Of a stretch of 64,000 bases of DNA, positions 37,414-64,000 are shown in pieces (the first letter of the stretch is position 1; every line of letters starts with the position of its first letter). Made by a program: the position numbers and the translations under genes. The notes below the pieces were generated by a model. That model made no database searches and had not been told where the DNA came from. It was given only the letters and a program-made list of their open reading frames with translations. The stretch comes from Dictyostelium discoideum (Eukaryota): NCBI GenBank assembly GCA_000004695.1, contig CM000155.2, forward strand, positions 1,920,001 to 1,984,000, written 5' to 3'.

Positions 37414-37444
<31 letters not shown>

Positions 37445-37863
37445 CCAAAATTTACACACCATTGATTTAATAATATTACTTTTCTATTTAAATCTTTTTC
37501 TTGAATTGCCATATATAGATTAATATAGATTTCTTCATTTCTTTGATTATTTTGTTTTTGTAAAGTTATTACATCATTAAATTTACCAATTCTTCTTAAA
37601 TAACCTAAAAACATATCATATAAACCAAATTTATTACTATCACTAATTGAATTTATAACCTCAAAGAATAATCTTGTATTTAAACTATTGTATAAATAAT
37701 GCATAACCATTAAACTTGCATCCATATCCATTGATATTACTGATTGTCTAAGTATTTCTTTTTTTTCCTTTATAGTTTTATAATTTGTTAATTTCCTTAA
37801 CTCTTGATTTAAATTAAATGATTTAAAACTTGATAATTGTTCTGAATTATTTGAATTATTTGA

Positions 37864-37922
<59 letters not shown>

Positions 37923-38192
37923 ATTGATTTTTTTGATTTTCATCTTCTTGTTGTGATGAAGAAGATTGTTGTAAAATGTTTTTATGTTTATTTATAAATT
38001 TATTTGTATTTTTTAATTCTTCATTCTCTTCTAATAATTTCAAAAATTTTGTATTCAATTGATCTAATGATAATTGTAATGATTCTTTTTCTTGTATAAC
38101 TTTCATCATATTAGATCTATAAGTATTTTCTTTAGATTCAAACTCTTTATTCATTTGAATTTTTACATTTCTAATTAAATTATCAGCATCAA

Positions 38193-38286
<94 letters not shown>

Positions 38287-38616
38287 TTGAGTTACCAAAG
38301 ATGTCACTGCTGCTGTTGTTGTTGTTGTCGTTGCTTTTGTTGAGTTTTTAAGTGTTTGTTGCTGTTGTTGTTGTTGTTGTTTTTGTTGTGGTTGTTGTTG
38401 TGGAGGTGGTGGTAAAGGTTTTTTAGTTATTGGGGTTGGTTTTGTATCTTGTAAAAATGGATTCAAATCATCATCATTCTTACTTGGATTGGATTCTTTA
38501 TTGTTACAAGAAGATGTGGATGTATTTAAGAATGGGTTTAATTCCTCTTCTGATTTATTATTTATACTAGAGTTTTGCATTAAAAATGGATTTAATTCAT
38601 CTTCATTTTTAAGTGT

Positions 38617-38690
<74 letters not shown>

Positions 38691-38906
38691 GCTGGAGTTG
38701 ATTGTTATTTGAGGTTTGTTTTGATAAAAATGGGTTTAAATAGTCATCTTCACCTACTAAATGTTGTTTTGTATTATTACTAATAGGTATTGGAGGTAAC
38801 TTCTTATTCGATATATCATCGTTTGATGTTAAAAATGGGTTATCATCACTTGAAAAATTATTATTATTATTGTTATTTGTTAAAGGAGTTACAGGTAGTG
38901 ATTTTC

Positions 38907-38993
<87 letters not shown>

Positions 38994-39099
38994 TATTATT
39001 TTTGTTATTATTAGAAAGTGGATCAGTTATTAAATTGGCCCCATCTACTATTTTGTTGTTTGATGGTAAATCAAATGGGTTATCTTCAAAAGGGTTCAT
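36745..39099 (-). CDS. Hypothetical 784-aa protein with at least 6 N-terminal NPF motifs (EH-domain ligand type), long poly-Asn/poly-Gln tracts, a coiled-coil-like middle and a structured C-terminal region.
   Basis: A single ORF from ATG. It contains NPFEDNPFD, NPFLTSND, NPFLSKQ, NPFLMQN, NPFLNTST and NPFLQDT. (CAA)n at 38614..38690 encodes ~26 Gln. The C-terminus (...DMFLGYLRRIGKFNDVITLQKQ...LNQWCVNFGKQ...EAFVEILTINMAPLDLIEQCARMI...) has non-repetitive composition. Confidence 0.6.
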
Positions 39100-39384
39100 T
39101 GTGGTATATCAACTTTCGACTTTACAAAAAAATAAAAAAAATAAAAAAATAAAAAAAAAAACAAAAACACAATAAAAAAAAAAAATTAAAAAAAATAAAA
39201 AAAAAAAAATTTAAAAATAATCAATTTCCCATTTTTCCAAGATTTATTATTTTTGTTAAGAATAAATAAAGACAGACTGGAAAAATAAATATATTTTTTT
39301 TTTAAATTTTTTTTTAATTTTATTTATTTACTATTTTATTTTATTATTTAAAAAATATTATTTTTTTTATTATATTATTTGGTT

Positions 39385-39453
<69 letters not shown>

Positions 39454-39494
39454 ATAATTATTTAATTTTTTAATTTTTTAATTTTTTTAATTTT

Positions 39495-42400
39495 TTAGTT
39501 TGTAACACCAAAATTTAAATCATATCTACTTGAAGCTATCATTGGATCTAAAATAAGAATATTTGAAATTGTTGCTTTTCCATTAACCATTGTTGCAGCG
39601 TTATAAGGAATAGATGAAGTTGGTAGAGGTGATGGAATAATTGAAAGTGTAACTGAATCAGCTGTAATAATATATTGTTGATTTTGGTATGGTGGATTAA
39701 TGAATTTAAATAGACCTAATGAATCGGTTGATTGTTTTTGAATTAAGGTACCATTGGCAAATAATAAACTAACGGCAACACCTTGTTTACCTTGCTCCCA
39801 TGGTTCTTGAATACCATTACCATTTGTATCAATAAAGACAATACTACCAAGGGTAATTGGTTTTGGAGAACAGTGGGCTACAAGTTGACCAAGACCCGAT
39901 GCTTTGCCAAAGGTAACTGGATTGACTGTATCTGAATTATCAGTGAGATAAACTTGGAATGAAGAACGAAGGGTACCATTGTTATTGTTATAAAATTTGA
40001 CTACACCTTCGAATACAGTTGTAGCATCGAATGAAGCTGATGCAACCTCTGGGAAACCTGGAACTTGGAAAACTGAAAGACCACCAGTATCATCATGACC
40101 AATTTGACCTTTTCTAAAGTTATCATTATAGAATTCACCAGTACCTGGACCTTCAATTTGACCTTTATAACCTGATGGACCTGTATGAGAACCAATAGCA
40201 CCACCACATTTACCATCTCTTTCTGGGACATAAACTCCATTGACCAAACAAATACGTAAAATATCTGGTGCCGATACGAAACTACCTTGATCACCTTCTC
40301 TATCTCTGATACCGATAACCATATCATTACCATCGAATGTAATTGATGCAACGACTGGTTGTGGATTGTCATCGATATCAATCCATGGTTGCCATGTACT
40401 GTTACGACAGACTGTATTTGAATCAAAATTCTTACAACCTCTGCTATAATTTAATGGTAGAGTGACAACCTTTGTGAAGACTTGAGTGACTGGATCAAAA
40501 GAGTGAATGATTGCATTCATATCTGGGATGGTTGGACCACCACAAACTGAACCTGTATAATATTTACCTTGATGGAAGTTGATTGCAAATGGTTGCCAGA
40601 AATATTTGTCTTGGGTTCTTGTACAACCAAATGGAACCGTAAATCTTTGAGTGTTTGTTTTATTTGGCTGAGTATCCAATGGCATTATAATAATATCACG
40701 GGTTTGTAAACCAACTACTGCCAAACTACGAGTGTATGGATTAATAACAATACCACCAAATGCTGTACGATAAATCTCTGAAATTCTAAAATCTGTATCT
40801 AAACTAATGTCCATACCTAAAATATCATCAGTACCTTCTGTATCTTTTTCAAGGAAAGAATCAATTCTAGTGTATAGTGAATTTCTACCGGTTACAGTAT
40901 CGATCTTATAGATTGCATTAAGACGTCCAGGGCCATAATCTGTACCAAACTTGGTGAATGCTGAGGCGTAAAGTTGTTTCTTACTACGATCATAGGCTAG
41001 ACCATAGGTTGTACCTGATTCATAATAGAAGGATAGTGGAGTGATTTGATTATGTTGAGTAGAATTGTATGGGAACATAACGATAACTGGTTCACCAGTG
41101 TTTGGACCATTTTCATCACTATTACCAATGACATAACAACCTACTGAAAGATTTGGTACATCATTACATGTTTCTTCATTGGTGATGAAAGAGAAATCTG
41201 CAAATCCTGCTGGAACGGTGTAGGTGTTTGGAAGAATTACTGAAGTTGGTCTACATGTTTCAACCTTATCGCCTGAACCAGTTGGAAGTGCTGGCGTACC
41301 TACTGTAATCAAATAATTACCATCTTGTACAAGATTAAAGAATGAATATGAACCGGTTGAATCTGTAAGAGTGGAGTTGAAAGGAGTCTTACTATCGGCA
41401 TAGTAAATATAAACTGGAATCTTTGAAAGTGGTATATCTTTAGCTGTACCAAATTGACCACTGATATCGTATTTACCGTTACAATTGTAATCTTTGAAAA
41501 CTCTACCAGTGACATTCTTAAGACTTGGTCTAATTACACCAAGATTAACTGGTTTACATTTATATTGAGAGAATGGACAAACTATATTATCATCATCATT
41601 TGCATCCAATGTAAACATTGTAGAATTAAAGGTACCCAATAATAAAGAGTTTGTTGGTGAGCCAGTTACATTGAATTTAGTTGTTAGCCAACCAGATCCT
41701 GATGGAGGAATCAAGGTGAGTGTATAATTACCAAGTTGAAGGTTTGGAATTGAGAAACTACCATTGGCTGCCACTGGTGAGGTTGCAACAACAGTACCAA
41801 TTGGAACTGTAGTTAAACCACCATTAACGGCTTGATTGGCAGATTTCAATTGAACAGTAAAGTTACCTGGTGGAACTGAACCCATTTCAAAGAGACCATC
41901 TTGTAAAACATCATTCCAAACGTAACCAAATACACCCATTGTAGTGAAAACAAAACCTGCATCATGAGTAGGGTCAAGGTATGGTGCTGTATATAAATTT
42001 GATTCATTATCAAATCTTGAACGAATATCGGATGATGTAATAATAAGATTAAATGCATCAGTTCTACCATTAGGGAATGCATTGTTTTCTACTTGATTTG
42101 ATGTTGACACTAATTTGGTTGGAGTGATTGAATAACCGGCTGGTATGACAAATTGAACGATATAATAACCTAAACGTACATTATCAATGTAATAGTAACC
42201 TTGAGAGTTTGATACTGCTTTCAATGGGTTACCATCTGAACCCATAACTGGTTGACCATTGTTATTTAAGAGAAGTACAGTAACATTTGGTAATGGTTTT
42301 TCATCAATATCAAAGATACCATTCTTGTTGGTATCAATAAAGGTTCTAACACCCAATGCAACATATGGGGTATTTATACCAACATTGGCTTTGTTGTACG

Positions 42401-45400
42401 CTTGTCTACAACGACTAACACTTGATACAGTTACTACATCTGGTCCTGGCATTGTGAATATTGGTGTTGTACGATTTAATGGGAAGAATCTATTGTTGAC
42501 TAAACCAGTAGTGGTGAAATTTGAAATGATATAACGAGGTGGAATTGAAACTGTCATATAGTAGGAACCTGGTGGAACGTTTGGAATTGAATATTTACCA
42601 TTTACATCTGTGACTGCCATTTGAATTGGTTTGCCGAAAATATCATTTGGAGTGGAACCATCTGCATTAAAGAGTGTAAGGTTTACATATGGGAAACCAA
42701 TTTCATTGATATCAAAGATACCATTGAGATTACCATCGGACCATGATTGTTGACCAATACTGTAACATGGGATTACAATACCTGCATCATTGTTTAGATT
42801 TTTCCAAGTATTTGATCCATAGGTTGTATCCAATGTAAAGTTATTCAAAACAATTACTTGACCGTTTGCTGTGGCTCTTGACATACCACCTGTCAAAATT
42901 GGTGAATAAGTAGTACCTGCAATATATTTGGTACTATTGGCAGGTATAGTTAATCTTACTACATAGGAAGGTCCACTTGATACATTTTGGAATAAATATT
43001 TACCATTGGCAGTTGTTACTTGACTTGAAATTGGTTTACCTAAAATATCCAATGCTGGTGAAAGATCTGAAGATACTAATAATTCAACTTTAATACCATC
43101 TGCACCAACTTCACCATTGTCTAATAGTGAATTATTATTTGAATCAATCCAAATAGTATCACCTAAATATATTTTTTTTTTTCATCAAATTATATTAAAA
43201 AAACAAATTATTAATAAAAATAAAAATTTTAATAAAAATAAAATTATATTTAAAAAAAATTTAATACTTTACCAATAATAAATGATTGTGGAACATAACC
43301 AACATTGAATGTATAATTCTTATTGAAAGCCTTGAGATTATCTGATGGAACTGTACGTAATGTATTATTATAAATTTCAATATCTAAACATAATGTATTA
43401 TTACCTTTTAAGAAATTATCTGGACCTGATATACCAAGTTGATAGGTTGGATTTGGTGGTATGAAAGTTAAACAATCGTTACCAGTTTCTAAATTATCAA
43501 AAATGTAGAAACCATTGGCATCAGTTTGTTTGGTCTTTGAACCAATTGAGATTGTAACATTTGCAATACCTGGTTCATCTACATCTTTCTTACCATTGTT
43601 GTTAATATCTAAGAATACAAATCTACCAATTGCTATCTTGGGTGGAACAATACCAAAGTCTTGATAGATATTGATATAGTTTGCTTTAAGATTCCAAGTT
43701 GAATCAATTAGCATAAGTGCTTTATCATTTTGACTGAGATCAATACTGATGTAACCAGTTGCATTTGCCTTGTTATCTTGAAGAGTATTATTGGAGATTG
43801 TAAAACCAACTGGTGGAGTAATTGCTAAATTGTAAACTCCTGGGTATAAATTATCGAAAATGTAGATACCACTTGGATTTGTTACGGTAGATGTTATAAA
43901 GTTAAAGTTACTATCATAAATTCTAACAGTAATACCTTCAACTGCAGGTTCATATGATTCAGCTCCACCATTACCATTCTTATCTACCCAAATATATGTT
44001 CCAACTGCATATTTGTATGGGGCTAAACCAAAATTAACAGTGGCATCTTGATAGGTATCTTCAGTATGACTTGGAATTGAGAATCTTTGAACGGTTGGAC
44101 TGAATACAGAGACATTGGTACAAGCAATAGCATTAGAATCACCTCTATTAAATGTTGTTGGAGTTAAGAGAGTTGGATAAAATTCTTTTGGTACAGTGAG
44201 TGAAACGCAATAATTTCCTGGAGCTAAATGGGTAAAGATGTATGTTCCATTGGCATCTGTTGTTGTTGTTGCAATGGTTTGTGATAGGTTAGAACCACTT
44301 CTTAAGAAAACTGTAATATTTGCCATACCCATTTCACTTGGTTGCATTTGACCATCTTTATTGTCATCATTGAAAACAATGAAACCAATACTCAAATATT
44401 CTGTGGTGAAACCAGCATCAATATTTCTATTAATATAATAAGTTGGTACTTTATCTGATGCAATCGATGCTGTAACATCTGGACTATTGATTCTAAGAGA
44501 AACTGATACACGTCCTCTACTGTTTACTTTAGATTGATCTGTTATTGGACTTGGTTTCAATTGTTTTGGATAACCAAATTGTACAACATAATCTCCTTGT
44601 TCAACATTAACGAAATGATAGATACCTTGTGAATCAGTGGTTGTGGTCATGAGAGTTGTATTGAATAAATTCAAAAGTCTAACGGTAATATTAACCAATG
44701 GAGTATCTTGGGCACTATCAAATAGACCATTTCCATTAACATCACGGAATACAAAGTCACCAATTGAAAAGATTGGTGGAATTAAACCACCATTAATATC
44801 ATTTCTACAAATTGGATCACCATAATTAATAGTGAAACAACTTAAACCTTGAGGGTTGAATACAGAGTCATTGGTTATCTTTGTCATTATATAGTTATCG
44901 ATAATGGATAAACTTACACAATAATTTCCAACAACTAAATTATCGAATCTATAATTTCCATTTACATCAGTTGTTGTAGTTTGAGTTGGTAAAGCGGTGT
45001 TATTTGGAGTAAGAGTAATGGTTAAGTTTCTATATGGTTCTTCGGTTGGTTCTGGATGACCATTACCGTTAATATCAATCCAAACATATTTACCAACACA
45101 ATAAAGTGGAACTAAACCGAGGTTTGCGTCATTTTTATTTCCAGATAGCGTGAAACAATATTGTTGTGTGTTTGAATCACCACCAATTGGTGAGAATGGT
45201 GAATCATTTGATTTTGTAACTGCTTTGAAATTTTGTGGAACTGATGCAGTTAAACAATAATTACCGGCTAATAATTGACCAAAACTATATTTACCTTGTG
45301 AGTTTGTTGTTGTTGTTTTTATTTCTGAGTTTCCAGTGTTAACAAGAGAAAGAGAAACATTTGCTTGAAGTGGATCATCTAAATCTTTAATACCATTATT

Positions 45401-48400
45401 AAGTTTATCAATCCAAACATTATCACCTAATGTATAGAATGGAGTTAAACCTACATTGACATTAGTTAAATTGGTAGCATTAACATTGAAACAATATGTT
45501 GTTACATTTTTAGAGGTTGATAAAATAAATGGAGAGTCTAAAGATGTATTTACAAATTTGTAAAGTGCAGAATTAATTGGACCTGCGCTCATACAATAGT
45601 TACCTGGTGCAACATCAACAAATTGGTAGAATCCATTTGCGTTTGTAATGGTTGAATTGATTTGTTTTCCTTGTGAATCTAAAAGTGTCATGGTAATGTT
45701 TGGAACACCAGCCGATGTTGGTAAACGTTTACCAGTATTTAATGGATCTAACCAAGCTGTATCACCAACAGTCAAAAGTGGAGTGAGACCAAGGTTGGCA
45801 TTAGTAATTGATGATGTTGTAAGGTCGAAACAATAGATTGTACTCTTGTTAAATGGTGAATCTTGAGATTGAATAACTTGTTGATAGTGTGGTGGAATAA
45901 TCATCTTGATACAATATGATCCTGGTACTTGATCTTTAAATGCGTACTTACCGTTTTCATCTGTAATTGTGTTGGCAATGGAAGTTCCATTTGGTGAGAA
46001 CAATGAAACTGAAACACCTGGTAATAATGGTTCATCTAATTCTTTAATACCATTATTATTCTTTTCGATCCAAACATATTGACCAATATCAAGTGTTGAT
46101 ACGAAACCTGGATTAACATTAGTGTTGTTATATGGTATATGACCATTTAATCTAACACAATACTGACCATTAATGAATGGAGAATCTTTGCTACCTGTTA
46201 CTGGAATTGTACCTAATGGAGTTGTTGCATTGAGACAATATTTACCCATTAATAATGGATAGAACATGTAGTTACCATTAATATCTGTTTTGGTTGTTTC
46301 TATAACATTTCCTAGTGGGTCAATAAGTGATAATTCTACATCGGAAAGGAATTCATTATCTTGTCTCTTTCCATCGTTATTAATATCTAACCAAGCAATA
46401 TAACCAACTCCAAATATAGTATCCAAACCAAGGTTAACATCTGACATATCACCAAATAATGGGAAACAAAAACCACCTGTAGAGTTGGTAACTGAATCAT
46501 CAGAGTCGACAACAACAATATATCCTGGTGGAACTTCAAATTGAACACAATAGTCTGCACTTGGTAATAAATTAGGTACAACATAGCCACCTTTATCATC
46601 AGATCTTGTAGCAGCTAAAATGTTTCCACTTACCTTGTCATATAATTGTACTGTTACATTTGGAAGAAGTAGATCACTAGATGAAAGGAATTTTGATAAA
46701 TCTAAATCGACCCATGTTGTACCATCGACCACAAGGTATGGAATCAAACCAATATTGGCATTCAATACATTAGAATCTGTGACTGCGAAACAATATTGAA
46801 GTTCTGCTAATGGATTAGTTGGAGATGTATCAGTGAAGTTTTTGAATGGCGATACTTCAGAATATGAATCTGCTAAATAATTGGATGGTACTGTAGCTCT
46901 TACGCAATAACTACCTGGTTGTATATCATTGAATTGATATTTACCAGAAGAGTTGGTAATAGTTGTTTCAATTAAATTACCATTGTTATCATAGAGAGAC
47001 ATTGTTACATTTGGTACCAATAATGAATCATTTCTACGAACTCCATTATTTAAATTATCTAACCATGCATCAGAACCAATATTATAAAGTGGAATTAAAC
47101 CTAAATTGGCATTTGTAATTGATTTATCAAGTAAATCGAAACAATATTTGACATCTGAATCGAATGGAGAGTCTTTTGATTGTGCAACTTGTTCATAGTG
47201 TGGTGGAATAACCATTTGTACACAATATGATCCTGGTACTTGATCTTTTAATGCATATTTACCATTTTCATCTGTTACAAGATTGGCAATTGATGTTCCA
47301 TTTGGTGAGAAAATATGAATTTGTATGCCTGGTAATAATGGTTCATCTGATTCTTCTTTACCATTGTTATTCTTATCGATCCAAACATATTGACCAATAT
47401 CGAGTGTTGGTACAAAACCTGGATTGACATCAGTTCTATCAATTGGTTGTGGTCCTGTGAATGTTAAACAATATTTATTATTGACAAAGAGATTATCTGA
47501 ACTACCAGTAACTGGAATTGAACCTATTGGAGTTGTTGCAATGATACAATAATCACCTTGTGGAAGGTTATCAAATTTGTAATTACCTGATTCATTGGTT
47601 GTTGTAGTTTGTAATACTTTACCATTTGAATCTTGTAATGATAACTCTACACCTGGTAAGAACTCATTGTCTTCTTTATTACCATTATTATTCTTATCTA
47701 ACCATGATACTGATCCGATACTATTGAGTGGAGAAATACCAATATTGATATTTGGATTTGATTGTGTTAATAAGAAACAATATTTACCTGTTGTTTGGTC
47801 AACAACTGAGTCTTTTGATGGTTGTACGAAATGATATTTAATTGGAGTTGTTGTTTCAATACAATAATTGCCTGGTAATAAATGGTCAAAGTGGTAGTTT
47901 CCATTTGAATCTGTTTGTGTAGTAGATGATTGACCTGATCCAGTATTGGTAAGTTTAATTTGGAATTCTGATTTACCAACATCAACTGGTTTATCGTAGA
48001 CATTGTTATTATTTGAATCAATCCAAACAATAGTTCCAATTTTAAGTAATGGAATTAAACCAAGATCTTGATTATCTGTTGGTCCACTAACTGTGAAACA
48101 TGATTCAACATCTGATTGGGAAGATAATGAAAATGGTGAGTCTGAAGATTTGTTAACTGGGGAATAATCCGAAGGAACAGATACTTTGATACAATAATCG
48201 CCTGGCTCAACATCATCGAATTGATATTTACCAATATCGTCAGTTGGAATTGATTTAATAATTGTATTTCCATTTTTATCAGTAAGTGTTAATACAATAT
48301 TTGGAATACCTGGGGAATTTTCTAATTGAATACCAGTGTTGAATGAATCTAACCAAACAGTATCACCAATTGGATAAAGTGGAATTAAACCAAGATTGGC

Positions 48401-51400
48401 GTTTGCAATTGATTTATCTACTAAATCGAAACAATATTTGACATCTGAATCGAATGGTGAATCTTCTGATTGTGCAACTTGTTTATAATGATCTGGAATA
48501 ACCATTTGTACACAATATGGTCCTGGTACTTGATCTTTTAATGCGTATTTACCATTTTCATCTGTTACAAGATCTGCGATCTTAGTTCCATTTGGTGATG
48601 TGATAATAACTTGAACACCTGGTAATAATGGTTCATCTGGTTCTTCTTTACCATTGTTATTCTTATCGATCCAAACATATTGACCAATATCGAGTGTTGA
48701 TACAAAACCTGGATTGACATCAGTTCTATCGATTGGTTGTGGTCCTGTGAATGTTAAACAATATTTATTATTGACAAATAGATTATCTGGACTGCTTGTT
48801 ACTGGAATTGAACCGATTGGAGTTGTTGCGACGATACAATAATCACCTGGTAATAAATTATCAAATTTGTAATTACCTGATTCATCAGTTGTTGTTGTAT
48901 CTAATACTTTGCCACTTGGATCTTGTAATGATAACTCTACACCTGGTAAGAATTCATTATCTTCTTTCTTACCATTATTATTTTTATCTAACCATGATAC
49001 TGATCCGATACTATTGAGTGGTACTAAACCGATATTGATATTTGGATTTGATTGTGTTAATTTGAAACAATATTCACCTGTTGAGTCGACAACTGAATCA
49101 TCTGAAGTTACAACAAATTGGTATTGATCTGGTTGTGTTACTTTGATACAATAATCACCTGCTAATAAATGATTGAAATTATAGTTACCATCAACATCTG
49201 TTTGAATTGTTGATGTTTCACCATTACCACTGTTGGTTAATGTAATTGATACATCTGATTTACCGATATCACTTGGTTGTTCAAACTTATCATTGTTATT
49301 TGAATCAATCCAAACAATGGTACCGATTTCATAGAATGGTGATAAACCTAAGTTTTGATTATCTAATGGTCCTGAAACTTTGAAGCATGATTTAACAATT
49401 GATTCATTCGAAGTTGGAGAGAATGGTGAATCTGATGATGTATTGACTGCTTGATAGGTATCACTTGGAAATTCTGCTTCAATACAATAATCACCTGGTG
49501 GAACATCTTCGAATTGATATTTACCATCTGGTCCTGAAGTTGTTGATTGAATAACTTTATCATCTTTATCGACTAAATTTAATTCAATACCTTCGACACC
49601 TGGTGAATCATCAGTACGTTTACCAGTATTGAACGGATCTAACCAAACACTATCACCAATTGGATAAAGTGGAATTAAACCAAGATTGGCGTTTGTAATT
49701 GATGTATCTACTAAATCGAAACAATATTTGACATCTGAATCGAATGGTGAATCTTCTGATTGTGCAACTTGTTTATAATGATCTGGAATAATCATTTGTA
49801 CACAATATGATCCTGGTACTTGATCTTTTAATGCATATTTACCATTTTCATCTGTTACAAGATTGGCAATTGATGTTCCATTTGGTGATGTGATAATAAC
49901 TTGAACACCTGTTAATAATGGTTCATCTGATTCTTCTTTACCATTGTTATTCTTATCGATCCAAACATATTGACCAATATCGAGTGTTGATACAAAACCT
50001 GGATTGACATCAGTTCTATCGATTGGTTGTGGTCCTGTGAATGTTAAACAATATTTATTATCGACAAAGAGATTGTCTGGACTACCAGTAACTGGAATTG
50101 AACCGATTGGAGTTGTTCCGACGATACAATAATCACCTGGTAATAAATTATCAAATTTGTAATTACCTGATTCATCAGTTGTTGTTGTTGTATCTAATAC
50201 TTTACCATTTGAATCTTGTAATGATAATTCTACACCTGGTAAGAATTCATTGTTTTCTCTCTTACCATTATTATTCTTATCTAACCATGATACTGATCCG
50301 ATACTATTGAGTGGTACTAAACCGATATTGATATTTGGATTTGATTGTGTTAATTTGAAACAATATTCACCTGTTGAGTCGACAACTGAATCATCTGAAG
50401 TTACAACAAATTGATATTTATTTGGTTCTGTTGCTTTGATACAATAATCACCTGCTAATAAATGATTGAAATTGTATTCCCCATCAGCATCTGTTTGAAT
50501 TGTTGATGTTTCACCATTACCACTGTTGGTTAATGTAATTGATACATCTGATTTTTTAATATCACTTGGTTGTTCAAACTTATCATTGTTATTTGAATCA
50601 ATCCAAACAAATGTACCGATTTCATAGAATGGAGTAACACCAATTGGTGGTTTGACATCATGATCAGTGATTGTGAAACAATATTTAACTGTGACGAAAC
50701 TATCATTTGTTGAATCAGCCGAGAATGGTGAATCTGATGATGTATTGACTGGTTTGTATTGATCTTTTGGAATATCAGCTTCAACACAATAATCACCTGG
50801 TGGAACATCTTCGAATTGATATTTACCATCTGGTCCTGATTTGGTGTTTGTAATTTCATTTCCATCTTTATCAGTTAATCTAATTGTAATGTCTGATAAT
50901 GGTGGTGAATCATCAGTTTGTTTACCAGTATTGAATGGATCTAACCAAACTTTATCACCAACGTTGAATAATGGAATTAAACCAAGATTGGCATTTGTAA
51001 TTGATTTATCTACCAAATCGAAACAATATTTGACATCTGAATCGAATGGTGAGTCTTCTGATTGTGCATCTTGTTTATAATGTGGTGGAATAACCATTTG
51101 TACACAATATGATCCTGGTACTTGATCTTTTAATGCATAATTACCATTTTCATCTGTTACAAGATCTGCGATCTTAGTTCCATTTGGTGATGTGATAATA
51201 ACTTGAACACCTGGTAATAATGGTTCATCTGGTTCTTCTTTACCATTGTTATTCTTATCGATCCAAACATATTGACCAATATCGAGTGTTGATACAAAAC
51301 CTGGATTGACATCATATCTATCGATTGGTTGTGGTCCTGTGAATGTTAAACAATATTTATTATTGACAAATAGATTGTCTGGACTACCAGTAACAGGGAT

Positions 51401-54400
51401 TGAACCGATTGGAGTTGTAGCGACAATACAATAATCACCTGGTAATAATTCGTAAAATAGGTAATAACCTGATTCATCGGTTGTTGTTGTTTCAAATAAA
51501 GTACCATTTGGATCTTGTAATGATAATTCTACACCTGCTAATGATTCTCCAGCAGTTGCTAAACCATCATTATCTTTATCTAACCAAGCGAATGTTCCGA
51601 TACTATTGAGTGGTACTAAACCGATATTGATATTTGGATTTGATTGTGTTAATTTGAAACAATATTCACCTGTTGAATTTACAACTGAATCATCTGAAGT
51701 TACAACAAATTGATATTTATTTGGTTCTGTTACTTTGATACAATAATCACCTGCTAATAAATTATTGAATTTGTAATTACCATTTGAGTCTGTTTGAATT
51801 GTTGATGTTTCACCATTACCACTGTTGGTTAATGTAATTGATACATCTGATTGTTTAATATCACTTGGTTGTTCAAACTTATCATTGTTATTTGAATCAA
51901 TCCAAACAAATGTTCCGATTTCGAGGAATGGAATTAAACCAAGATTGGCATTGTTAACTGGCTCTGTAACTGTGAAACAATATCTAGATTTAATTGGTTC
52001 AATCGAAGAAGTTGGGAGTGGAAGAACTACCGAGAATGGTGAATCTGATGAGGTATTTTCTACTTGATATTTTCTTGGGACAGATGCTTCAATACAATAA
52101 TCGCCTGGTGGAACATCTTCGAATTGATATTTACCATTTGGTCCTGATGCAGTTGATTGAATTGAATTTCCGTATTTATCAATGAGTGTGAGTGGAATAC
52201 CTTCTACTCCTGGTGAATCATCAGTACGTTTACCAGTATTGAATGGATCTAACCAAACACTATCACCAAGGTTGTAAAGTGGAACTAAACCAAGATTTGC
52301 GTTTGTAATTGATTTATCTTCTAAATCGAAACAATATTTGACATCTGAATCGAATGGTGAATCTTCTGATTGGTTAACTTGTTTATAATGATCTGGAATA
52401 ATCATTTGTACACAATATGATCCTGGTACTTGATCTTTTAATGCATATTTACCATTTTCGTCTGTAAAAAGATTGGCAATTGATGTTCCATTTGGTGATG
52501 TGATAATAACTTGAACACCTGGTAATAATGGTTCATCTGGTTCTTCTTTACCATTGTTATTCTTATCGATCCAAACATATTGACCAATATCGAGTGTTGG
52601 TACAAAACCTGGATTGACATCAGTTCTATCGATTGGTTGTGGTCCTGTGAATGTTAAACAATATTTATTATTGACAAAGAGATTGTCTGGACTACCAGTA
52701 ACTGGAATTGAACCGATTGGAGTTGTTCCGACGATACAATAATCACCTGGTAATAAATTATCAAATTTGTAATTACCTGATTCATCGGTTGTTATTGTTT
52801 GTAATACAGTGCCATTTGGATCTTGTAATGATAATTCTACACCTTCTAATGATTCTTCAGCAGTTGCTAAACCATCATTATCTTTATCTAACCAAGCGAA
52901 TGTTCCGATACTATTGAGTGGTACTAAACCGATATTGATATTTGGATTTGATTGTGTTAATTTGAAACAATATTCACCTGTTGAGTCGACAACTGAATCA
53001 TCTGAAGTTACAACAAATTGATATTTATTTGGTTCTGTTGCTTTGATACAATAATCACCTGCTAATAAATGATTGAAATTGTATTCACCATCAGCATCTG
53101 TTTGAATTGTTGATGTTTCACCATTACCACTGTTGGTTAATGTAATTGATACATCTGATTTTTTTATATCACTTGGTTGTTCAAACTTATCATTGTTATT
53201 TGAATCAATCCAAACAAATGTACCGATTTCATAGAATGGAGTAACACCAATTGGTGGTTTGACATCATGATCAGTGATTGTGAAACAATATTTAACTGTG
53301 ACGAAACTATCATTTGTTGAATCAGCCGAGAATGGTGAATCTGATGATGTATTGACTGGTTTGTATTGATCTTTTAGAATATCAGCTTCAACACAATAAT
53401 CACCTGGTGGAACATCTTCGAATTGGTATTTACCATCTGGTCCTGATTTGGTGTTTGTAATTTCATTTCCATCTTTATCAGTTAATCTAATTGTAATGTC
53501 TGATAATGGTGGTGAATCATCAGTTTGTTTACCAGTATTGAATGGATCTAACCAAACTTTATCACCAACGTTGAATAATGGAATTAAACCAAGATTGGCA
53601 TTTGTAATTGATTTATCTACCAAATCGAAACAATATTTGACATCTGAATCGAATGGTGAGTCTTCTGATTGTGCATCTTGTTTATAATGTGGTGGAATAA
53701 CCATTTGTACACAATATGATCCTGGTACTTGATCTTTTAATGCATAATTACCATTTTCATCTGTTACAAGATCTGCGATCTTAGTTCCATTTGGTGATGT
53801 GATAATAACTTGAACGCCTGGTAATAATGGTTCGTCTGATTCTTCTTTACCATTGTTATTCTTATCGATCCAAACATATTGACCAATATCAAGTGTTGAT
53901 ACAAAACCTGGATTGACATCATATCTATCGATTGGTTGTGGTCCTGTGAATGTTAAACAATATTTATTATTGACAAATAGATTATCTGGACTGCTTGTTA
54001 CTGGAATTGAACCGATTGGAGTTGTTGCAACGATACAATAATCGCCTGGTAATAAATTATCAAATTTGTAATTACCTGATTCATCAGTTGTTGTTGTTTC
54101 TAATACTTTACCATTTGAATCTTGTAATGATAACTCTACACCTGGTAAGAATTCATTGTCTTCTTTATTACCATTATTATTCTTATCTAACCATGATACT
54201 GATCCGATACTATTGAGTGGTACTAAACCGATATTGATATTTGGATTTGATTGTGTTAATTTGAAACAATATTCACCTGTTGAGTCGATAACTGAATCAT
54301 CTGAAGTTACAACAAATTGGTATTGATCTGGTTGTGTTGCTTTGATACAATAATCACCTGCTAATAAATGATTGAAATTATAGTTACCATCAACATCTGT

Positions 54401-57400
54401 TTGAATTGTTGATGTTTCACCATTACCACTGTTGGTTAATGTAATTGATACATTTGATTTTCCGATATCACTTGGTTGTTCAAATTTATCATTGTTATTT
54501 GAATCAATCCAAACAATGGTACCGATTTCATAGAATGGTGATAAACCTAAGTTTTGATTATCTAATGGTCCTGAAACTTTGAAGCATGATTTAACAATTG
54601 ATTCATCTGAAGTTGGAGAGAATGGTGAATCTGATGATGTATTGACTGGTTTGTATTGATCATTTGGAATTGTTGCTTCAATACAATAATCACCTGGTGG
54701 AACATCTTCGAATTGATATTTACCATCTGGTCCTGATGTTGTTGATTGAATAACTTTACCATCTTTATCGACTAAATTTAATTCAATACCTTCTACACCT
54801 GGTGAATCATCAGTACGTTTACCAGTATTGAATGGATCTAACCAAACAGTATCACCAATTGGATAAAGTGGAATTAAACCAAGATTGGCATTTGTAATTG
54901 ATTTATCTACCAAATCGAAACAATATTTGACATCTGAATCGAATGGTGAGTCTTCTGATTGTACAACTTGTTTATAATGTGGTGGAATAACCATTTGTAC
55001 ACAATATGGTCCTGGTACTTGATCTTTTAATGCATAATTACCATTTTCATCTGTTACAAGATCTGCGATCTTAGTTCCATTGGGTGATGTGATAATAACT
55101 TGAACACCTGGTAATAATGGTTCATCTGATTCTTCTTTACCATTGTTATTCTTATCGATCCAAACATATTGACCAATATCGAGTGTTGATACAAAACCTG
55201 GATTGACATCAGTTCTATCGATTGGTTGTGGTCCTGTGAATGTTAAACAATATTTATCATCTACAAAGAGATTATCTGGACTGCTTGTTACTGGAATTGA
55301 ACCGATTGGAGTTGTTGCAACGATACAATAATCACCTGGTAATAAATTATCAAATTTGTAATTACCTGATTCATCGGTTGTTGTTGTATCTAATACTTTA
55401 CCATTTGAATCTTGTAATGATAATTCTACACCTGGTAAAAATTCATTATCTTCTTTATTACCATTATTATTCTTATCTAACCATGATACTGATCCGATAC
55501 TATTGAGTGGTACTAAACCGATATTGATATTTGGATTTGATTGTGTTAATTTGAAACAATATTCACCTGTTGAGTCGACAACTGAATCATCTGAAGTTAC
55601 AACAAATTGATATTTATTTGGTTCTGTTACTTTGATACAATAATCACCTGCTAATAAATGATTGAAATTATAGTTACCATCAACATCTGTTTGAATTGTT
55701 GATGTTTCACCATTACCACTGTTGGTTAATGTAATTGATACATCTGATTTTTTTATATCACTTGGTTGTTCAAAGTTATCATTGTTATTTGAATCAATCC
55801 AAACAAATGTACCGATTTCATAGAATGGAGTAACACCAATTGGTGGTTTGACATCATGATCAGTGATTGTGAAACAATATTTAACTGTGACGAAATTATC
55901 ATTTGTTGAATCGACTGAGAATGGTGAATCTGATGATGTATTGACTGGTTTGTATTGATCTTTTAGAATATCAGCTTCAACACAATAATCACCTGGTGGA
56001 ACATCTTCGAATTGATATTTACCATCTGGTCCTGATTTGGTGTTTGTAATTTCATTTCCATCTTTATCAGTTAATCTAATTGTAATGTCTGATAATGGTG
56101 GTGAATCATCAGTTTGTTTACCAGTATTGAATGGATCTAACCAAACTTTATCACCAACTTTGAATAATGGAATTAAACCAAGATTGGCATTTGTAATTGA
56201 CTCATCGATTAAATCGAAACAATATTTGACATCTGAATCGAATGGTGAGTCTTCTGATTGTGCAACTTGTTTATAATGTGGTGGAATAACCATTTGTACA
56301 CAATATGATCCTGGTACTTGATCTTTTAATGCATAATTACCATTTTCATCTGTTACAAGATCTGCGATCTTAGTTCCATTGGGTGATGTGATAATAACTT
56401 GAACACCTGGTAATAATGGTTCATCTGATTCTTCTTTACCATTGTTATTCTTATCGATCCAAACATATTGACCAATATCGAGTGTTGATACAAAACCTGG
56501 ATTGACATCATATCTATCGATTGGTTGTGGTCCTGTGAATGTTAAACAATATTTATCGTCGACAAATAGATTATCTGGACTGCTTGTTACTGGAATTGAA
56601 CCGATTGGAGTTGTTGAGACGATACAATAATCACCTGGTAATAAATTATCAAATTTGTAATTACCTGATTCATCGGTTGTTGTTGTATCTAATACTTTAC
56701 CATTTGAATCTTGTAATGATAATTCTACACCTGGTAAAAATTCATTATCTTCTTTATTACCATTATTATTCTTATCTAACCATGATACTGATCCGATACT
56801 ATTGAGTGGTACTAAACCAATATTGATATTTGGATTTGATTGTGTTAATTTGAAACAATATTCACCTGTTGAGTTGACAACTGAATCATCTGAAGTTACA
56901 ACAAATTGGTATTGATCTGGTTGTGTTACTTTGATACAATAATCACCTGCTAATAAATGATTGAAATTATAGTTACCATCAACATCTGTTTGAATTGTTG
57001 ATGTTTCACCATTACCACTGTTGGTTAATGTAATTGATACATTTGATTTTCCGATATCACTTGGTTGTTCAAATTTATCATTGTTATTTGAATCAATCCA
57101 AACAATGGTACCGATTTCATAGAATGGTGATAAACCTAAGTTTTGATTATCTAATGGTCCTGAAACTGCGAAACATGATTTAACGATTGATTCATCTGAA
57201 GTTGGAGAGAATGGTGAATCTGATGATGTATTGACTGCTCGTAAGATATCATTTGAAATTGTTGCTTCAATACAATAATCACCTGGTGGAACATCTTCAA
57301 ATTGATATTTACCATTTGGTCCTGAAGTTGTTGATTGAATAACTTTACCATCTTTATCGACTAATTGTAATTCAATACCTTCGAGACCTGGTGAATCATC

Positions 57401-60400
57401 AGTACGTTTACCAGTATTGAATGGATCTAACCAAACAGTATCACCAATTGGATAAAGTGGAACTAAACCGAGATTTGCGTTTGTAATTGATTCATCGATT
57501 AAATCGAAACAATATTTGACATCTGAATCGAATGGTGAGTCTTCTGATTGTGCAACTTGTTTATAATGTGGTGGAATAATCATTTGTATACAATATGATC
57601 CTGGTACTTGATCTTTTAATGCATAATTACCATTTTCATCTGTTACAAGATCTGCGATCTTAGTTCCATTGGGTGATGTGATAATAACTTGAACACCTGG
57701 TAATAATGGTTCATCTGATTCTTCTTTACCATTGTTATTCTTATCGATCCAAACATATTGACCAATATCGAGTGTTGATACAAAACCTGGATTGACATCA
57801 TATCTATCAATTGGTTGTGGTCCTGTGAATGTTAAACAATATTTATCATCAACAAATAGATTATCTGGACTGCTTGTTACTGGAATTGAACCGATTGGAG
57901 TTGTTGCGACGATACAATAATCACCTGGTAATAAATTATCAAATTTGTAATTACCTGATTCATCAGTTGTTGTTGTTTCTAATACTTTACCATTTGAATC
58001 TTGTAATGATAATTCTACACCTGGTAATGATTCTCCCTCACTTGCTAAACCATCATTATCTTTATCTAGCCATGCGAACGATCCGATACTATTGAGTGGT
58101 ACTAAACCAATATTGATATTTGGATTTGATTCTGTTAATTTGAAACAATATTCACCTGTTGAGTTGACAACTGAATCATCTGAAGTTACAACAAATTGGT
58201 ATTTATTTGGTTCTGTTGCTTTGATACAATAATCACCTGCTAATAAATGATTGAAATTATAGTTACCATCAACATCTGTTTGAATTGTTGATGTTTCACC
58301 ATTACCACTGTTGGTTAATGTAATTGGAACATCTGATTGTTTAATATCACTTGGTTGTTCAAACTTATCATTGTTATTTGAATCAATCCAAACAAATGTT
58401 CCGATTTCGAGGAATGGAATTAAACCAAGATTGGCATTGTTAACTGGCTCTGTAACTGTGAAACAATATCTAGATTTAATTGGTTCAATTGAAGAAGTTG
58501 GGAGTGGAAGAACTACCGAGAATGGTGAATCTGATGAGGTATTTTCTACTTGATATTTTCTTGGGACAGATGCTTCAATACAATAATCACCTGGTGGAAC
58601 ATCTTCGAATTGATATTTACCATTTGGTCCTGATGCAGTTGATTGAATTGAATTTCCGTATTTATCAATGAGTGTTAGTGGAATACCTTCTACACCTGGT
58701 GAATCATCAGTACGTTTACCAGTGTTGAATGGATCTAACCAAACAGTATCACCAAGGTTGTAAAGTGGAACTAAACCAAGATTTGCGTTTGTAATTGATT
58801 TATCTTCTAAATCGAAACAATATTTGACATCTGAATCGAATGGTGAGTCTTCTGATTGTGAAACTTGTTTATAATGATCTGGAATAATCATTTGTACACA
58901 ATATGATCCTGGTACTTGATCTTTTAATGCGTATTTACCATTTTCATCTGTTACAAGATCTGCGATCTTAGTTCCATTTGATGATGTGATAATAACTTGA
59001 ACACCTGGTAATAATGGTTCATCTGATTCTTCTTTACCATTGTTATTCTTATCGATCCAAACATATTGACCAATATCAAGTGTTGATACAAAACCTGGAT
59101 TGACATCAGTTCTATCGATTGGTTGTGGTCCTGTGAATGTTAAACAATATTTATTATTGACAAATAGATTATCTGGACTGCTTGTTACTGGAATTGAACC
59201 GATTGGAGTTGTTGCAACGATACAATAATCACCTGGTAATAAATTATCAAATTTGTAATTACCTGATTCATCGGTTGTTGTTGTATCTAATACTTTACCA
59301 TTTGAATCTTGTAATGATAATTCTACACCTGGTAAAAATTCATTGTCTTCTTTCTTACCATTATTATTCTTATCTAACCATGATACTGATCCGATACTAT
59401 TGAGAGGTACTAAACCAATATTGATATTTGGATTTGATTCTGTTAATTTGAAACAATATTCACCTGTTGAGTCGACAACTGAATCATCTGAAGTTACAAC
59501 AAATTGATATTTATTTGGTTCTGTTGCTTTGATACAATAATCACCTGCTAATAAATGATTGAAATTATAGTTACCATCGACATCTGTTTGAATTGTTGAT
59601 GTTTCACCATTACCACTGTTGGTTAATGTAATTGATACATCTGATTTTTTTATATCACTTGGTTGTTCAAACTTATCATTGTTATTTGAATCAATCCAAA
59701 CAAATGTACCGATTTCATAGAATGGAGTAACACCAATTGGTGGTTTGACATCATGATCAGTGATTGTGAAACAATATTTAACTGTGACGAAATTATCATT
59801 TGTTGAATCGACTGAGAATGGTGAATCTGATGATGTATTGACTGGTTTGTATTGATCTTTTGGAATATCAGCTTCAACACAATAATCACCTGGTGGAACA
59901 TCTTCGAATTGGTATTTACCGTCTGGTCCTGATTTAGTGTTTGAATTTTCATTTCCATCTGGTCTTGATTTGGTTTTTGTAATTTCATTTCCATCTTTAT
60001 CAGTTAATCTAATTGTAATGTCTGATAATGGTGGTGAATCATCAGTTTGTTTACCAGTATTGAATGGATCTAACCAAACTTTATCACCAACGTTGAATAA
60101 TGGAACTAAACCAAGATTGGCATTTGTAATTGATTTGTCGTCTAAATCGAAACAATATTTGATATCTGAATCGAATGGTGAGTCTTCTGATTGTGAAACT
60201 TGTTTATAATGTGGTGGACTAACCATTTGTACACAATATGATCCTGGTACTTGATCTTTTAATGTGTATTTACCATTTTCATCTGTTACAAGATTGGCAA
60301 TTGATGTTCCATTTGGTGATGTGATAATAACTTGAACACCTGGTAATAATGGTTCATCTGATTCTTCTTTACCATTGTTATTCTTATCGATCCAAACATA

Positions 60401-63400
60401 TTGACCAATATCGAGTGTTGATACAAAACCTGGATTGACATCAGTTCTATCGATTGGTTGTGGTCCTGTGAATGTTAAACAATATTTATCATCAACAAAT
60501 AGATTATCTGGACTGCTTGTTACTGGAATTGAACCGATTGGAGTTGTTACAACGATACAATAATCGCCTGGTAATAAATTATCAAATTTGTAATTACCTG
60601 ATTCATCAGTTGTTGTTGTATCTAATACTTTACCATTTGAATCTTGTAATGATAATTCTACACCTGGTAAAAATTCATTATCTTCTTTATTACCATTATT
60701 ATTCTTATCTAACCATGATACTGATCCGATACTATTGAGTGGTACTAAACCAATATTGATATTTGGATTTGATTGTGTTAATTTGAAACAATATTCACCT
60801 GTTGAGTCGACAACTGAATCATCTGAAGTTACAACAAATTGATATTTATTTGGTTCTGTTGCTTTGATACAATAATCACCTGCTAATAAATGATTGAAAT
60901 TGTATTCACCGTCAACATCTGTTTGAATTGTTGATGTTTCACCATTACCACTGTTGGTTAATGTAATTGATACATCTGATTTTCCAATATCACTTGGTTG
61001 TTCGAATCTATCATTGTTATTTGAATCAATCCAAACAATGGTACCGATTTCATAGAATGGAGTAACACCAATTGGTGGTTTGACATCATGATCAGTGATT
61101 GTGAAACAATATCTAACTGTGACGAAATTATCATTTGTTGAATCGACTGAGAATGGTGAATCTGATGATGTATTGACTGGTTTGTATTGATCTTTTGGAA
61201 TATAAGCTTCAACACAATAATCACCTGGTGGAACATCTTCGAATTGGTATTTACCATCTGGTCCTGAAGTTGTTGATTGAATAACTTTACCATCTTTATC
61301 AGTTAATCTAATTGTAATGTCTGATAATGGTGGTGAATCATCAGTTTGTTTACCAGTATTGAATGGATCTAACCAAACTTTATCACCAACTTTGAATAAC
61401 GGAACTAAACCAAGATTGGCATTTGAAATTGATTCATTGACTAAATCGAAACAATATTTGACATCTAAATCGAATGGTGAGTCTTCTGATTGTGCAACTT
61501 GTTTATAATGTGGTGGAATAATCATTTGTACACAATATGATCCTGGTACTTGATCTTTTAATGTGTATTTACCATTTTCATCTGTTACAAGATTGGCAAT
61601 TGATGTTCCATTTGGTGATGTGATAATAACTTGAACACCTGGTAATAATGGTTCATCTGGTTCTTCTTTACCATTGTTATTCTTATCGATCCAAACATAT
61701 TGACCAATATCGAGTGTTGATACAAAACCTGGATTGACATCAGTTCTATCGATTGGTTGTGGTCCTGTGAATGTTAAACAATATTTATTATTGACAAATA
61801 GATTATCTGGACTGCTTGTTACTGGAATTGAACCGATTGGAGTTGTTGTGACAATACAATAATCACCTGGTAATAAATTATCAAATTTGTAACTACCTGA
61901 TTCATCGGTTGTTGTTGTATCTAATACTTTACCATTTGAATCTTGTAATGATAATTCTACACCTGGTAAAAATTCATTGTCTTCTTTCTTACCATTATTA
62001 TTCTTATCTAACCATGATACTGATCCGATACTATTGAGTGGTACTAAACCGATATTGATATTTGGATTTGATTGTGTTAATTTGAAACAATATTCACCTG
62101 TTGAGTCGACAACTGAATCATCTGAAGTTACAACAAATTGGTATTGATCTGGTTGTGTTGCTTTGATACAATAATCACCTGCTAATAAATGATTGAAATT
62201 ATAGTTACCATCAACATCTGTTTGAATTGTTGATGTTTCACCATTACCACTGTTGGTTAATGTAATTGATACATCTGATTTTAAAACATCACTTGGTTGT
62301 TCGAATTTACCATTGTTATTTGAATCAATCCAAACCATGGTACCAATTTCATAGAATAGTGATAAACCTAAGTTTTGATTGTCTAATGGTCCTGAAACTG
62401 CGAAACATGATTTAACGATTGATTCATCTGAAGTTGGAGAGAATGGTGAATCTGATGATGTATTGACTGGTTTGTATTGATCATTTGGAATTGTTGCTTC
62501 AATACAATAATCACCTGGTGGAACATCTTCGAATTGATATTTACCATCTGGTCCTGATGTTGTTGATTGAATGACTTTGCCATCTTTATCGACTAATTGT
62601 AATTCAATACCTTCGACACCTGGTGAATCATCAGTACGTTTACCAGTATTGAATTGATCTAACCAAACAGTATCACCAATTGGATATAATGGGATTAAAC
62701 CAAGATTGGCATTTGTAATTGACTCATCGATTAAATCGAAACAATATTTGACATCTGAATCGAATGGAGATTCTTCTGATTGTGCAACTTGTTTATAATG
62801 ATCTGAAATAATCATTTGTACACAATATGATCCTGGTACTTGATCTTTTAATGCGTATTTACCATTTTCATCTGTTACAAGATCTGCGATCTTAGTTCCA
62901 TTTGATGATGTGATAATAACTTGAACACCTGGTAATAATGGTTCATCTGGTTCTTCTTTACCATTGTTATTCTTATCGATCCAAACATATTGACCAATAT
63001 CAAGTGTTGATACAAAACCTGGATTGACATCAGTTCTATCGGTTGGTAGTGGTCCTGTGAATGTTAAACAATATTTACCATCGACAAATAGATTATCTGG
63101 ACTGCTTGTTACTGGAATTGAACCGATTGGGGTTGTTGCAGAAATACAATAATCACCTGGAAGTAAATTATCAAAGTAATAGTTACCATCGGAATCTGTT
63201 GTTATTGTTTGAATAACAATACCATTTGGATCTTGTAATGATAATTCTACACCTGGTAAAAATTCATTGTCTTGTCTCTTACCATCATTATTCTTATCTA
63301 ACCATGATACTGATCCGATACTATTGAGTGGTACTAATCCAATATTGATATTTGGATTTGATTCTGTTAATTTGAAACAATATTCACCTGTTGAGTCGAC

Positions 63401-64000
63401 AACTGAATCATCTGAAGTTACAACAAATTTGTATTGATCTGGTTCTGTTACCTTGATACAATAATCACCTGCTAATAAATGATTGAAATTGTATTCACCG
63501 TCAGTATTGGAGATTGTTGAATACATTTCACCATTACCACTGTTGGTTAATGTAATTGATACATTTGATTTTCCGATATCATTTGGTTGTTCAAACTTAT
63601 CATTGTTATTTGAATCAATCCAAACAATGGTACCGATTTCATAGAATGGTGATAAACCTAAGTTTTGGTTATCTAATGGTCCTGAAACTGCGAAACATGA
63701 TTTAACAATTGAATTATCTGAAGTTGGAGAGAATGGTGAATCTGATGATGTATTAACTGATTGATAGGTATCATTTGGAATTGTTGCTTCAATACAATAA
63801 TCACCTGGTGGAACATCTTCGAATTGATATTTACCATCTGGCCCTGATGTTGTTGATTGAATAACTTTACCATCTTTATCGACTAATTGTAATTCAATAC
63901 CTTCGAGACCTGGTGAATCATCAGTACGTTTACCAGTATTGAATGGATCTAACCAAACAGTATCACCAATTGGATATAATGGAATTAAACCAAGATTGGC
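39495..64000 (-). CDS. Giant colossin-like protein, at least 8000 aa in this window. The N-terminus lies beyond coordinate 64000. Exons are >64000..43273 (repeat array) and 43162..39495 (unique C-terminal ~1220 aa). Dictyostelium colossin A is the nearest family I recall.
   Basis: The frame of the 6758-aa ORF stays open to the window edge. The M at 63526 is an internal Met. Donor G|GTAAAG at 43272 and acceptor TTTAG|GT at 43163 give split codon G|GT and splice ...PQSFIIG to DTIWIDSNNN..., which reproduces the repeat motif (PIGDTVWLD). Repeated modules carry LPGVxVxLxDxNGxxIxTTxTDxxGxYxFxxLxPGDYC, typical of Cna B-type / SdrD B-like beta-sandwich domains. Confidence 0.8.
43300..64000 (-). repeat. 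Coding tandem repeat array. There are at least 16 units of ~1290-1303 bp (about 430 aa, 5 modules each) at about 90-99% nucleotide identity, and the array continues past the window edge.
   Basis: Out-of-frame ORF copies recur with a fixed period, for example MLLELNRLELL... at 48796, 50098, 52708, 53995, 55240, 56539, 57829, 59182 and 60472. Identical 79-aa copies occur at 50841, 53448 and 56037. The protein units are near-identical (PFYEIGTIVWIDSNNNDKFEQPSDI...). Confidence 0.9.

Follow-up and report, generated by a model that had tools for sequence, protein, structure and literature searches.

A 64,000-nt stretch of Dictyostelium discoideum DNA (contig CM000155.2, positions 1,920,001 to 1,984,000; this whole stretch is called the window below) carries on its minus strand a giant gene, most likely the 3' three-quarters of the Dictyostelium-type colossin gene, colA. 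Its product is built from tandem modules of the SdrD_B family, with a non-repeat domain and one further SdrD_B module at the C-terminal end. The 5' end of the gene lies beyond position 64000 and its TAA stop codon is at 39495, while the coding part inside the window comprises 8,131 codons in two exons. The gene was assigned to colA because its size, composition and architecture fit: the protein has at least 8,131 aa and 69 modules and is encoded in a Dictyostelium-like genome context, as befits a giant dictyostelid repeat protein, and, like the colossin A family, it is specified by a giant A+T-rich amoebal gene of Cna_B/SdrD_B-type repeats. ColA is presumably the only colossin of D. discoideum large enough for this gene, and its length, which we take to be ~11,100 aa, would mean roughly 100 modules.

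In part of a published account, ColA is described as a 'slug protein' of hundreds of bacterial Cna_B repeats, and colA is placed among the candidates for horizontal gene transfer (HGT) from bacteria to Dictyostelium that are conserved in D. purpureum; the bacterial origin of the colossin modules is already published there (PMC3188802). In D. discoideum the colossin or Cna B-type family numbers 5 members; the other dictyostelids have 7-33, with the maximum of 33 in Acytostelium (PMC4334915). The colA gene (DDB_G0292696) is located on chromosome 6 (PMC10755179).

Gene layout and module array

The part of the gene inside the window consists of the following features.

43273 to 64000, minus strand: exon 1, partial; 6,909 codons plus 1 base, nearly all abutting SdrD_B modules (open frame, splice donor, Pfam)
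43163 to 43272, minus strand: intron of 110 nt, GT..AG, phase 1, very A+T-rich; donor G/GTAAAG at 43273/43272, acceptor end TTTAG at 43163
39495 to 43162, minus strand: exon 2, to the TAA stop; remainder of module 64, modules 65-68, the non-repeat domain and terminal module 69
47081 to 63970, minus strand: thirteen tandem units of four modules, A-B-C-D, 1290-1335 bp each, with 78-96% nucleotide identity (identity matrix)
59914 to 59996, minus strand: 36-nt tandem duplication (2.3 copies) in one A-type module (Tandem Repeats Finder, TRF; list of module lengths; translation)
43337 to 47080, minus strand: eleven progressively divergent SdrD_B modules, 53-63, with linkers of 20-27 aa after module 60; modules 60 and 62 have no Cys pair (profile built from the modules themselves)
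41247 to 43276, minus strand: modules 64-68, five SdrD_B modules in degenerate form; Cys is absent from 64-66, and the intron falls within module 64
39852 to 41246, minus strand: non-repeat domain of ~430-465 aa between modules 68 and 69, with bacterial homologues and no Pfam, NCBIfam or PDB sequence match
39498 to 39851, minus strand: terminal SdrD_B module 69 and the C-terminus ...RYDLNFGVTN, with no Cys, LPXTG or hydrophobic tail

The sequence-only reading of this DNA had delimited a repeat feature at 43273-64000, and one continuous minus-strand frame does fill this span, although 43273 proved to be an exon boundary, from which the gene runs on to 39495. The frame is free of stops from 64000 down to 43250, and its final in-frame codons (..IIG KVLNFF and a stop) mask the splice donor. 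Joining of the two exons recreates the module start motif IGDTIWIDSNNN (also given as ..SFIIGDTIWIDSNNN..).

A hidden Markov model (HMM), seeded on the first modules and then rebuilt with the divergent ones, gave the module table for the window, which contains 69 tandem modules of 106-126 aa, mostly of 106, 107 or 111 aa. Modules 1-59 abut without a linker, modules 60-68 are increasingly degenerate and are separated by 18-40 aa, and module 69 stands after the non-repeat region, here measured at ~465 aa. The invariant or near-invariant columns of the module are W6, D8, N10-12, G46, Y48, Y58, C59, S74, S77, C86, F87, N98 and G100, and the motif noticed in the sequence-only reading, W-x-D-x-N-N-N-G-K...TD..G.Y.F..L.PGDYC, recurs along the whole array. 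The module of ~85 aa and the five-module unit proposed in the same reading have to be replaced: the actual period is 106-126 aa, and the mean identity of modules is 82-84% at offsets of 4, 8 and 12 and ~35% at every other offset. Because of this period-four pattern, the higher-order unit comprises four module types, A-B-C-D, with a length of ~430 aa or 1.29 kb. The proposed number of ~100 modules exceeds the 69 found in the window and could hold only for the whole protein, the N-terminal part of which is encoded beyond position 64000.

The 1.29-kb repeat is beyond the reach of TRF, the longest period of which is 500 bp, and the periodicity was established from module identities at the protein level and from alignments of the units at the DNA level. 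Three subfamilies are present among the units (units 1, 2, 6, 8 and 12; units 3, 4, 7, 9 and 11; units 5 and 10), told apart mainly by the A module, which suggests that the units are themselves arranged in a larger repeat or that unequal exchange took place repeatedly. The single module of 126 aa owes its length to the 36-nt duplication, which adds 12 aa resembling 'NEITKTKSRPDG'.

Family and fold of the modules

Pfam was run on two exon-1 stretches (1,599 aa and 2,000 aa, with the 25 best matches listed for the latter) and on exon 2. The SdrD_B family (PF17210) was matched by the two exon-1 stretches with E-values of 4.6e-214 (697 bits) and 7.6e-282 (915 bits) at a cut-off of 29.7, with 14 and 18 individually significant domains, respectively, the best of which spans positions 2-93 of 112, and by exon 2 with an E-value of 1.6e-51 (5 stretches). 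The match to Cna_B (PF05738) was marginal, with 24.3 bits over 1,599 aa (cut-off 22.3) and 0 stretches significant alone, and Cna_B was not among the 25 best matches listed for the 2,000-aa stretch. The module family is SdrD_B and not Cna_B proper. Further matches on the same stretches, mostly shorter and partial, were to CarboxypepD_reg, SpaA, bMG3, NOMO and EMC7, which we take to belong to the same transthyretin-like clan as SdrD_B.

A phmmer search of the PDB with a two-module query retrieved the B1-B2 modules of Staphylococcus aureus SdrD (10ps_A) at E 5.3e-22, aligned to SdrD residues 332-527, as well as UafA at E 4e-7. An AlphaFold2 (AF2) model of modules D+A, computed from an alignment whose 58 rows were module pairs of the window, was all-beta, with 8 strands per module (predicted local distance difference test, pLDDT, 91.1; predicted template modelling score, pTM, 0.79). 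In a Foldseek search of the PDB, this model was matched best by SdrD A2-A3-B1-B2 (E 6.3e-17, 26% identity), followed by UafA, Bacillus anthracis TIE and the CnaB domains of Gram-positive pilins. The sequence-only reading had recognised a Cna B/SdrD B-type module and had named the lack of a profile match, or a fold other than a beta-sandwich, as grounds for giving it up; both checks were run, with a SdrD_B match and an all-beta, SdrD-like model as the outcome, and profile, pairwise sequence and fold all agree on the assignment, now narrowed to SdrD_B. Gram-positive bacteria, to which that reading linked the module, do not stand out among its closest bacterial relatives.

The modules might instead be vertically inherited eukaryotic transthyretin- or prealbumin-like domains, as in NOMO, EMC7 and the carboxypeptidase regulatory domains, having a mere likeness to SdrD_B and owing nothing to transfer. 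Pfam also lists NOMO1-like, NOMO_3rd, EMC7_beta-sandw and CarboxypepD_reg, and human NOMO2 was found by phmmer in the PDB at E 7.8e-11. However, the NOMO/EMC7-type matches are limited to the central C-E strand segment (e.g. 48/82 or 39/90 profile positions), whereas the long SdrD_B match includes the family-specific W-x-D-x-N-x-N-G loop, the sequence match to SdrD runs over two whole modules, and the C-terminal domain together with its SdrD_B junction, described below, is common to thousands of bacterial proteins. We rate vertical inheritance as very improbable.

The fold search also bears on the means by which the modules are stabilised, since it returned SpaA, GBS52, BcpA and CnaB2, and modules similar to the CnaB domains of pilins would be held together by Lys-Asn/Asp isopeptide bonds instead of Ca2+ and disulfides. 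The colossin modules are of the same fold class as the CnaB domains of Gram-positive pilins and of the Cna collagen adhesin, which likewise serve as stalk modules projecting a binding domain, and Asn98 on the last strand is invariant. In contrast to these proteins, the colossin modules have only the marginal match to PF05738 and no conserved isopeptide Lys: any Lys within the first 8 residues occurs in only 7 of the 69 modules, and there is no Lys among the invariant or near-invariant columns. Moreover, the SdrD B domain, which is the nearest relative of solved structure, relies on Ca2+ rather than on isopeptides. The isopeptide CnaB reading was ruled out for want of a conserved first-strand Lys, and we rate it as very improbable.

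One likely means of stabilisation is a disulfide. Exactly two Cys residues are found in 60 of the 69 modules, three in 2, one in 1 and none in 6 degenerate C-terminal modules, so that 68 of the 69 modules carry either 2 (or 3) Cys or none; the Cys pair ascribed to every module by the sequence-only reading is thus real, except in the module with one Cys and in the six without any. Both residues are situated in strands of the AF2 model, 56-63 (context ..GDYC..) and 84-89 (context ..YCF..), which an alignment to SdrD identifies as its strands E and F, adjacent in the CBEF sheet. The antiparallel register 56:89...61:84 puts Cys59 opposite Cys86. In S. aureus SdrD, Arg and Val are present where the colossin-type modules carry the Cys pair. 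Because strands E and F are adjacent and the Cys count follows a 2-or-0 rule, an intradomain, eukaryote-specific Cys59-Cys86 disulfide is likely on the basis of the model.

A second possible means is calcium. According to a structural study of 2026, the SdrD B domain is a cnaB/IgG-rev sandwich of the sheets DAG(F0) and CBEF that has one EF-hand-like Ca2+ site of high affinity (B-I), situated in its A-B loop, and two surface sites of low affinity, and the B array forms a rod through one- or two-residue Pro linkers (PMC13174682). In colossin, the loop following strand A reads D-K-N-N-N-G-K-E-E-P-D-E in type D modules and D-K-N-N-N-G-K-K-E-D-N-E in type C modules. Both have D1, N3, N5 and G6, with an acid at position 9 and with E12, and 28 of the 29 C and D modules fit the pattern D-x-[DN]-x-[DN]-G-x-x-[acid]-x-x-[DE]. 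The B modules have a variant loop, in which the acid is moved to position 13 (13 of 15 modules), and the loop motif is found in 0 of 15 A modules. Judged by these sequences, three of the four module types retain a putative EF-hand-like Ca2+ loop, which is canonical in types C and D and altered in type B, whereas type A has lost it.

The colossin array resembles the B repeats of S. aureus SdrD and UafA in belonging to the same family by profile, by pairwise sequence (SdrD/UafA) and by predicted fold, and it resembles SdrD in the EF-hand-like loop motif after strand A and in the tandem arrangement with very short Pro-containing junctions, which points to a rod. SdrD has 5 B modules, whereas colossin has ~70-100, and colossin further differs in its eukaryotic host, in its intron, in the two extra conserved Cys of each module and in having Asn, not Asp, at the strand-G position of the low-affinity Ca sites. 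No (SD)n run or LPXTG-like motif is present in the 8,131 aa seen, and no SdrG_C_C or other A-region (N2N3) family was found by Pfam in the part inside the window. An Sdr adhesin of the SdrC/D/E type, that is, one of the microbial surface components recognising adhesive matrix molecules (MSCRAMM), was ruled out, since these 8,131 aa contain no A region, Ser-Asp repeat or LPXTG.

C-terminal domain, bacterial origin and extracellular role

The C-terminal non-repeat domain gave no Pfam match at E<=10, none in NCBIfam and none in a profile search of the PDB. Clear bacterial homologues were nevertheless identified (P0040-42), among them a protein from a metagenome-assembled genome of Caldilineaceae that is 28% identical to the domain along 91% of the query (E 7e-22). 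When four sequences of the domain were combined in a profile, 4,196 representative clusters were matched at E<=1e-3 and 3,101 at <=1e-30, and a scan of GTDB species genomes confirmed 227 loci, spread over Planctomycetota, Campylobacterota, Actinomycetota, Cytophagales and others. In four bacterial homologues scanned with Pfam, SdrD_B modules come straight after the domain, and the junction between the two, FGKAxGLGD..C..API.IG..VW.D.NGNG, is common to bacteria and colossin, where it reads FGKASGLGQLVAHCSPKPITLGSIVFIDTNGNG.

An AF2 model of the domain, based on an alignment of four sequences, was beta-rich with blade-like groups of four strands and was matched by the propellers of YncE, strictosidine synthase and SMP30 with template modelling (TM) scores of 0.35-0.56; one homologue also had a sub-threshold YVTN-repeat match. 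The domain may thus be a beta-propeller, a label kept tentative because the model is poor (pLDDT 49).

The terminal module 69 resembles three colossin-like proteins and ~90 bacterial proteins more than its own 68 sister modules, its first intra-protein match ranking only 93rd, and several of its top bacterial matches fall on the module that immediately follows the propeller-like domain. The three colossin-like proteins of the representative library (P0142, P0159 and P0173; 3,208, 4,342 and 7,796 aa) share with the gene described here the SdrD_B modules with a Cys pair, the C-terminal domain and a terminal module ending in ..FGxxx, and they are presumably colossins of other amoebae.

The bacterial surface proteins combining a propeller-like domain with SdrD_B modules are similar to colossin in the domain (25-29% identity over ~450 aa, E to 7e-50) and in the conserved junction motif. 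Examples are a 2,039-aa open reading frame (ORF) of Limnoglobus roseus (L007), the Caldilineaceae protein P0040 and an 898-aa ORF of Streptomyces (L009). Unlike in colossin, the domain is usually located near the N-terminus, or else the whole cassette is repeated, and these proteins carry FG-GAP, DUF11, LAETG or type IX secretion system (T9SS) sorting modules and have neither Cys pairs nor a four-module super-repeat.

Homologues of both the modules and the C-terminal domain are almost all bacterial, and the nearest bacterial relatives include Planctomycetota, Chloroflexota, Bacteroidota and Actinomycetota. Because the bacterial family shares the domain together with the SdrD_B module that follows it, the transfer of a whole bacterial surface-protein gene, rather than of one domain, is suggested. 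An ancestor of the dictyostelids would have acquired such a gene, in which a propeller-like domain was already paired with SdrD_B modules; the acquired gene would then have gained the intron and the Cys pairs and have expanded internally. Tandem amplification of the four-module, 1.29-kb unit gave rise to the string of modules. That colossin is a domesticated complete bacterial surface-protein gene, in which the cassette was kept intact and a disulfide per module and the four-module amplification were added afterwards, has in our judgement an even chance of being correct.

As for the localisation of the protein, there is no segment resembling a transmembrane helix in the 8,131 aa (the maximum Kyte-Doolittle mean over 19 residues is 1.27), and a membrane protein was ruled out on this value. 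The same 8,131 aa contain 97 N-x-S/T sequons for N-glycosylation, the colossin-like P0159 has a signal-peptide-like N-terminus, and the homologues in bacteria are surface proteins that bear a LAETG, DUF11 or T9SS domain for sorting. We infer from these sequence features that the colossin protein is secreted, and, as part of the explanation that best covers the whole, it is quite probably a rod-like extracellular protein with a structural or adhesive role. In such a protein, Ca2+ bound in the EF-hand-like loop after strand A (canonical in C and D modules, variant in B, lost in A) would stiffen the modules, each of which would be stiffened further by the disulfide between strands E and F. With its short Pro-containing junctions, the array would then form a stiff filament of a few tenths of a micrometre, at our own estimate of ~4 nm per module. 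The role of such a filament would be to expose the propeller-like C-terminal domain as a head for binding, or alternatively to cross-link matrix in the slug sheath.

Several points weigh against this picture of a transferred, calcium- and disulfide-stiffened extracellular rod. The libraries searched consist mostly of prokaryotic proteins and metagenomes, and a wider eukaryotic distribution of the homologues is possible, which would weaken the HGT interpretation. The identity with colA, which nothing in the analysis contradicts, is probable from the architecture and from the published description, and the N-terminus of the protein itself, with the signal-peptide region, lies beyond the window. 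No functional experiment on colossin was found in the searchable literature. Ca2+ binding is read from motif conservation only, the A modules have lost the motif, and all colossin modules have Asn in place of the strand-G Asp by which the two low-affinity Ca sites of SdrD are bridged. Furthermore, the putative closeness of the two Cys is read from the strand register, and the model of the C-terminal domain is of the low quality mentioned above.

Genomic setting and significance

The units of 1.29 kb are up to 96% identical, arrays of this kind are difficult to assemble, and SdrD_B is a bacterial domain family, all of which could speak for a bacterial contamination or for an assembly artefact with collapsed or over-expanded repeats. 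Nevertheless, the gene has a G+C content of ~32% between flanks of ~20%, with poly-A/T tracts typical of Dictyostelium, and it contains an in-frame GT..AG intron and is surrounded by eukaryotic genes. The units differ by 4-22% and form three subfamilies, and are therefore distinct copies; the exon-2 sequence is found at 98% identity in an independent Logan assembly (fragment P0001), and the gene has already been published as colA (PMC3188802). Because of the spliceosomal-type intron and the ordinary eukaryotic neighbour genes, the gene is placed on a eukaryotic chromosome and contamination is ruled out; the likelihood of an artefact of either kind is close to nil. The eukaryotic setting claimed by the sequence-only reading is confirmed by the intron in the gene and by the following neighbours.

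13717-14376, plus strand: BUB1/Mad3 N-terminal homology region (ORF of the window)
20179-21723, plus strand: CCDC93 (ORF of the window)
23897-26716, plus strand: TRAPPC8-like protein with Ig domains (ORF of the window)
30247-31338, plus strand: dihydrouridine synthase, Dus (ORF of the window)

Four long ORFs (784-1078 aa) had no Pfam match at E<=1e-5, namely 4136-6739 (plus strand), 9551-12787 (minus strand), 14546-17563 (plus strand) and 36745-39099 (minus strand). The G+C content across the window is 17-37%, rising from ~20% in the flanks to 31-37% between ~40 kb and 64 kb. Long poly-A and poly-T runs and short A+T-rich tandem repeats are present in the intron (43186-43261) and in the DNA just 3' of the stop codon (39126-39501); such repeats around and inside the gene are typical non-coding DNA of Dictyostelium.

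The make-up of colossin from bacterial-type repeats is already known, and the core finding adds nothing new to it. Colossin is a textbook-style case in which a bacterial adhesin module, by horizontal transfer and runaway tandem amplification, became part of the extracellular matrix of an independently multicellular organism, as the genome papers on Dictyostelium have already pointed out. The refinements offered here are the exact family, SdrD_B, the retained putative Ca loops, the eukaryote-specific Cys pair with its putative disulfide and the four-module unit. The only element that is possibly new is the cassette of a propeller-like domain and SdrD_B. The C-terminal domain ties colossin to a very large class of uncharacterised bacterial surface proteins and gives a handle on the ligand of colossin. 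If the transfer of a whole gene is true, the bacterial adhesins and colossin would alike bind their ligands through the propeller-like domain as a head, and this domain would merit a new domain family.

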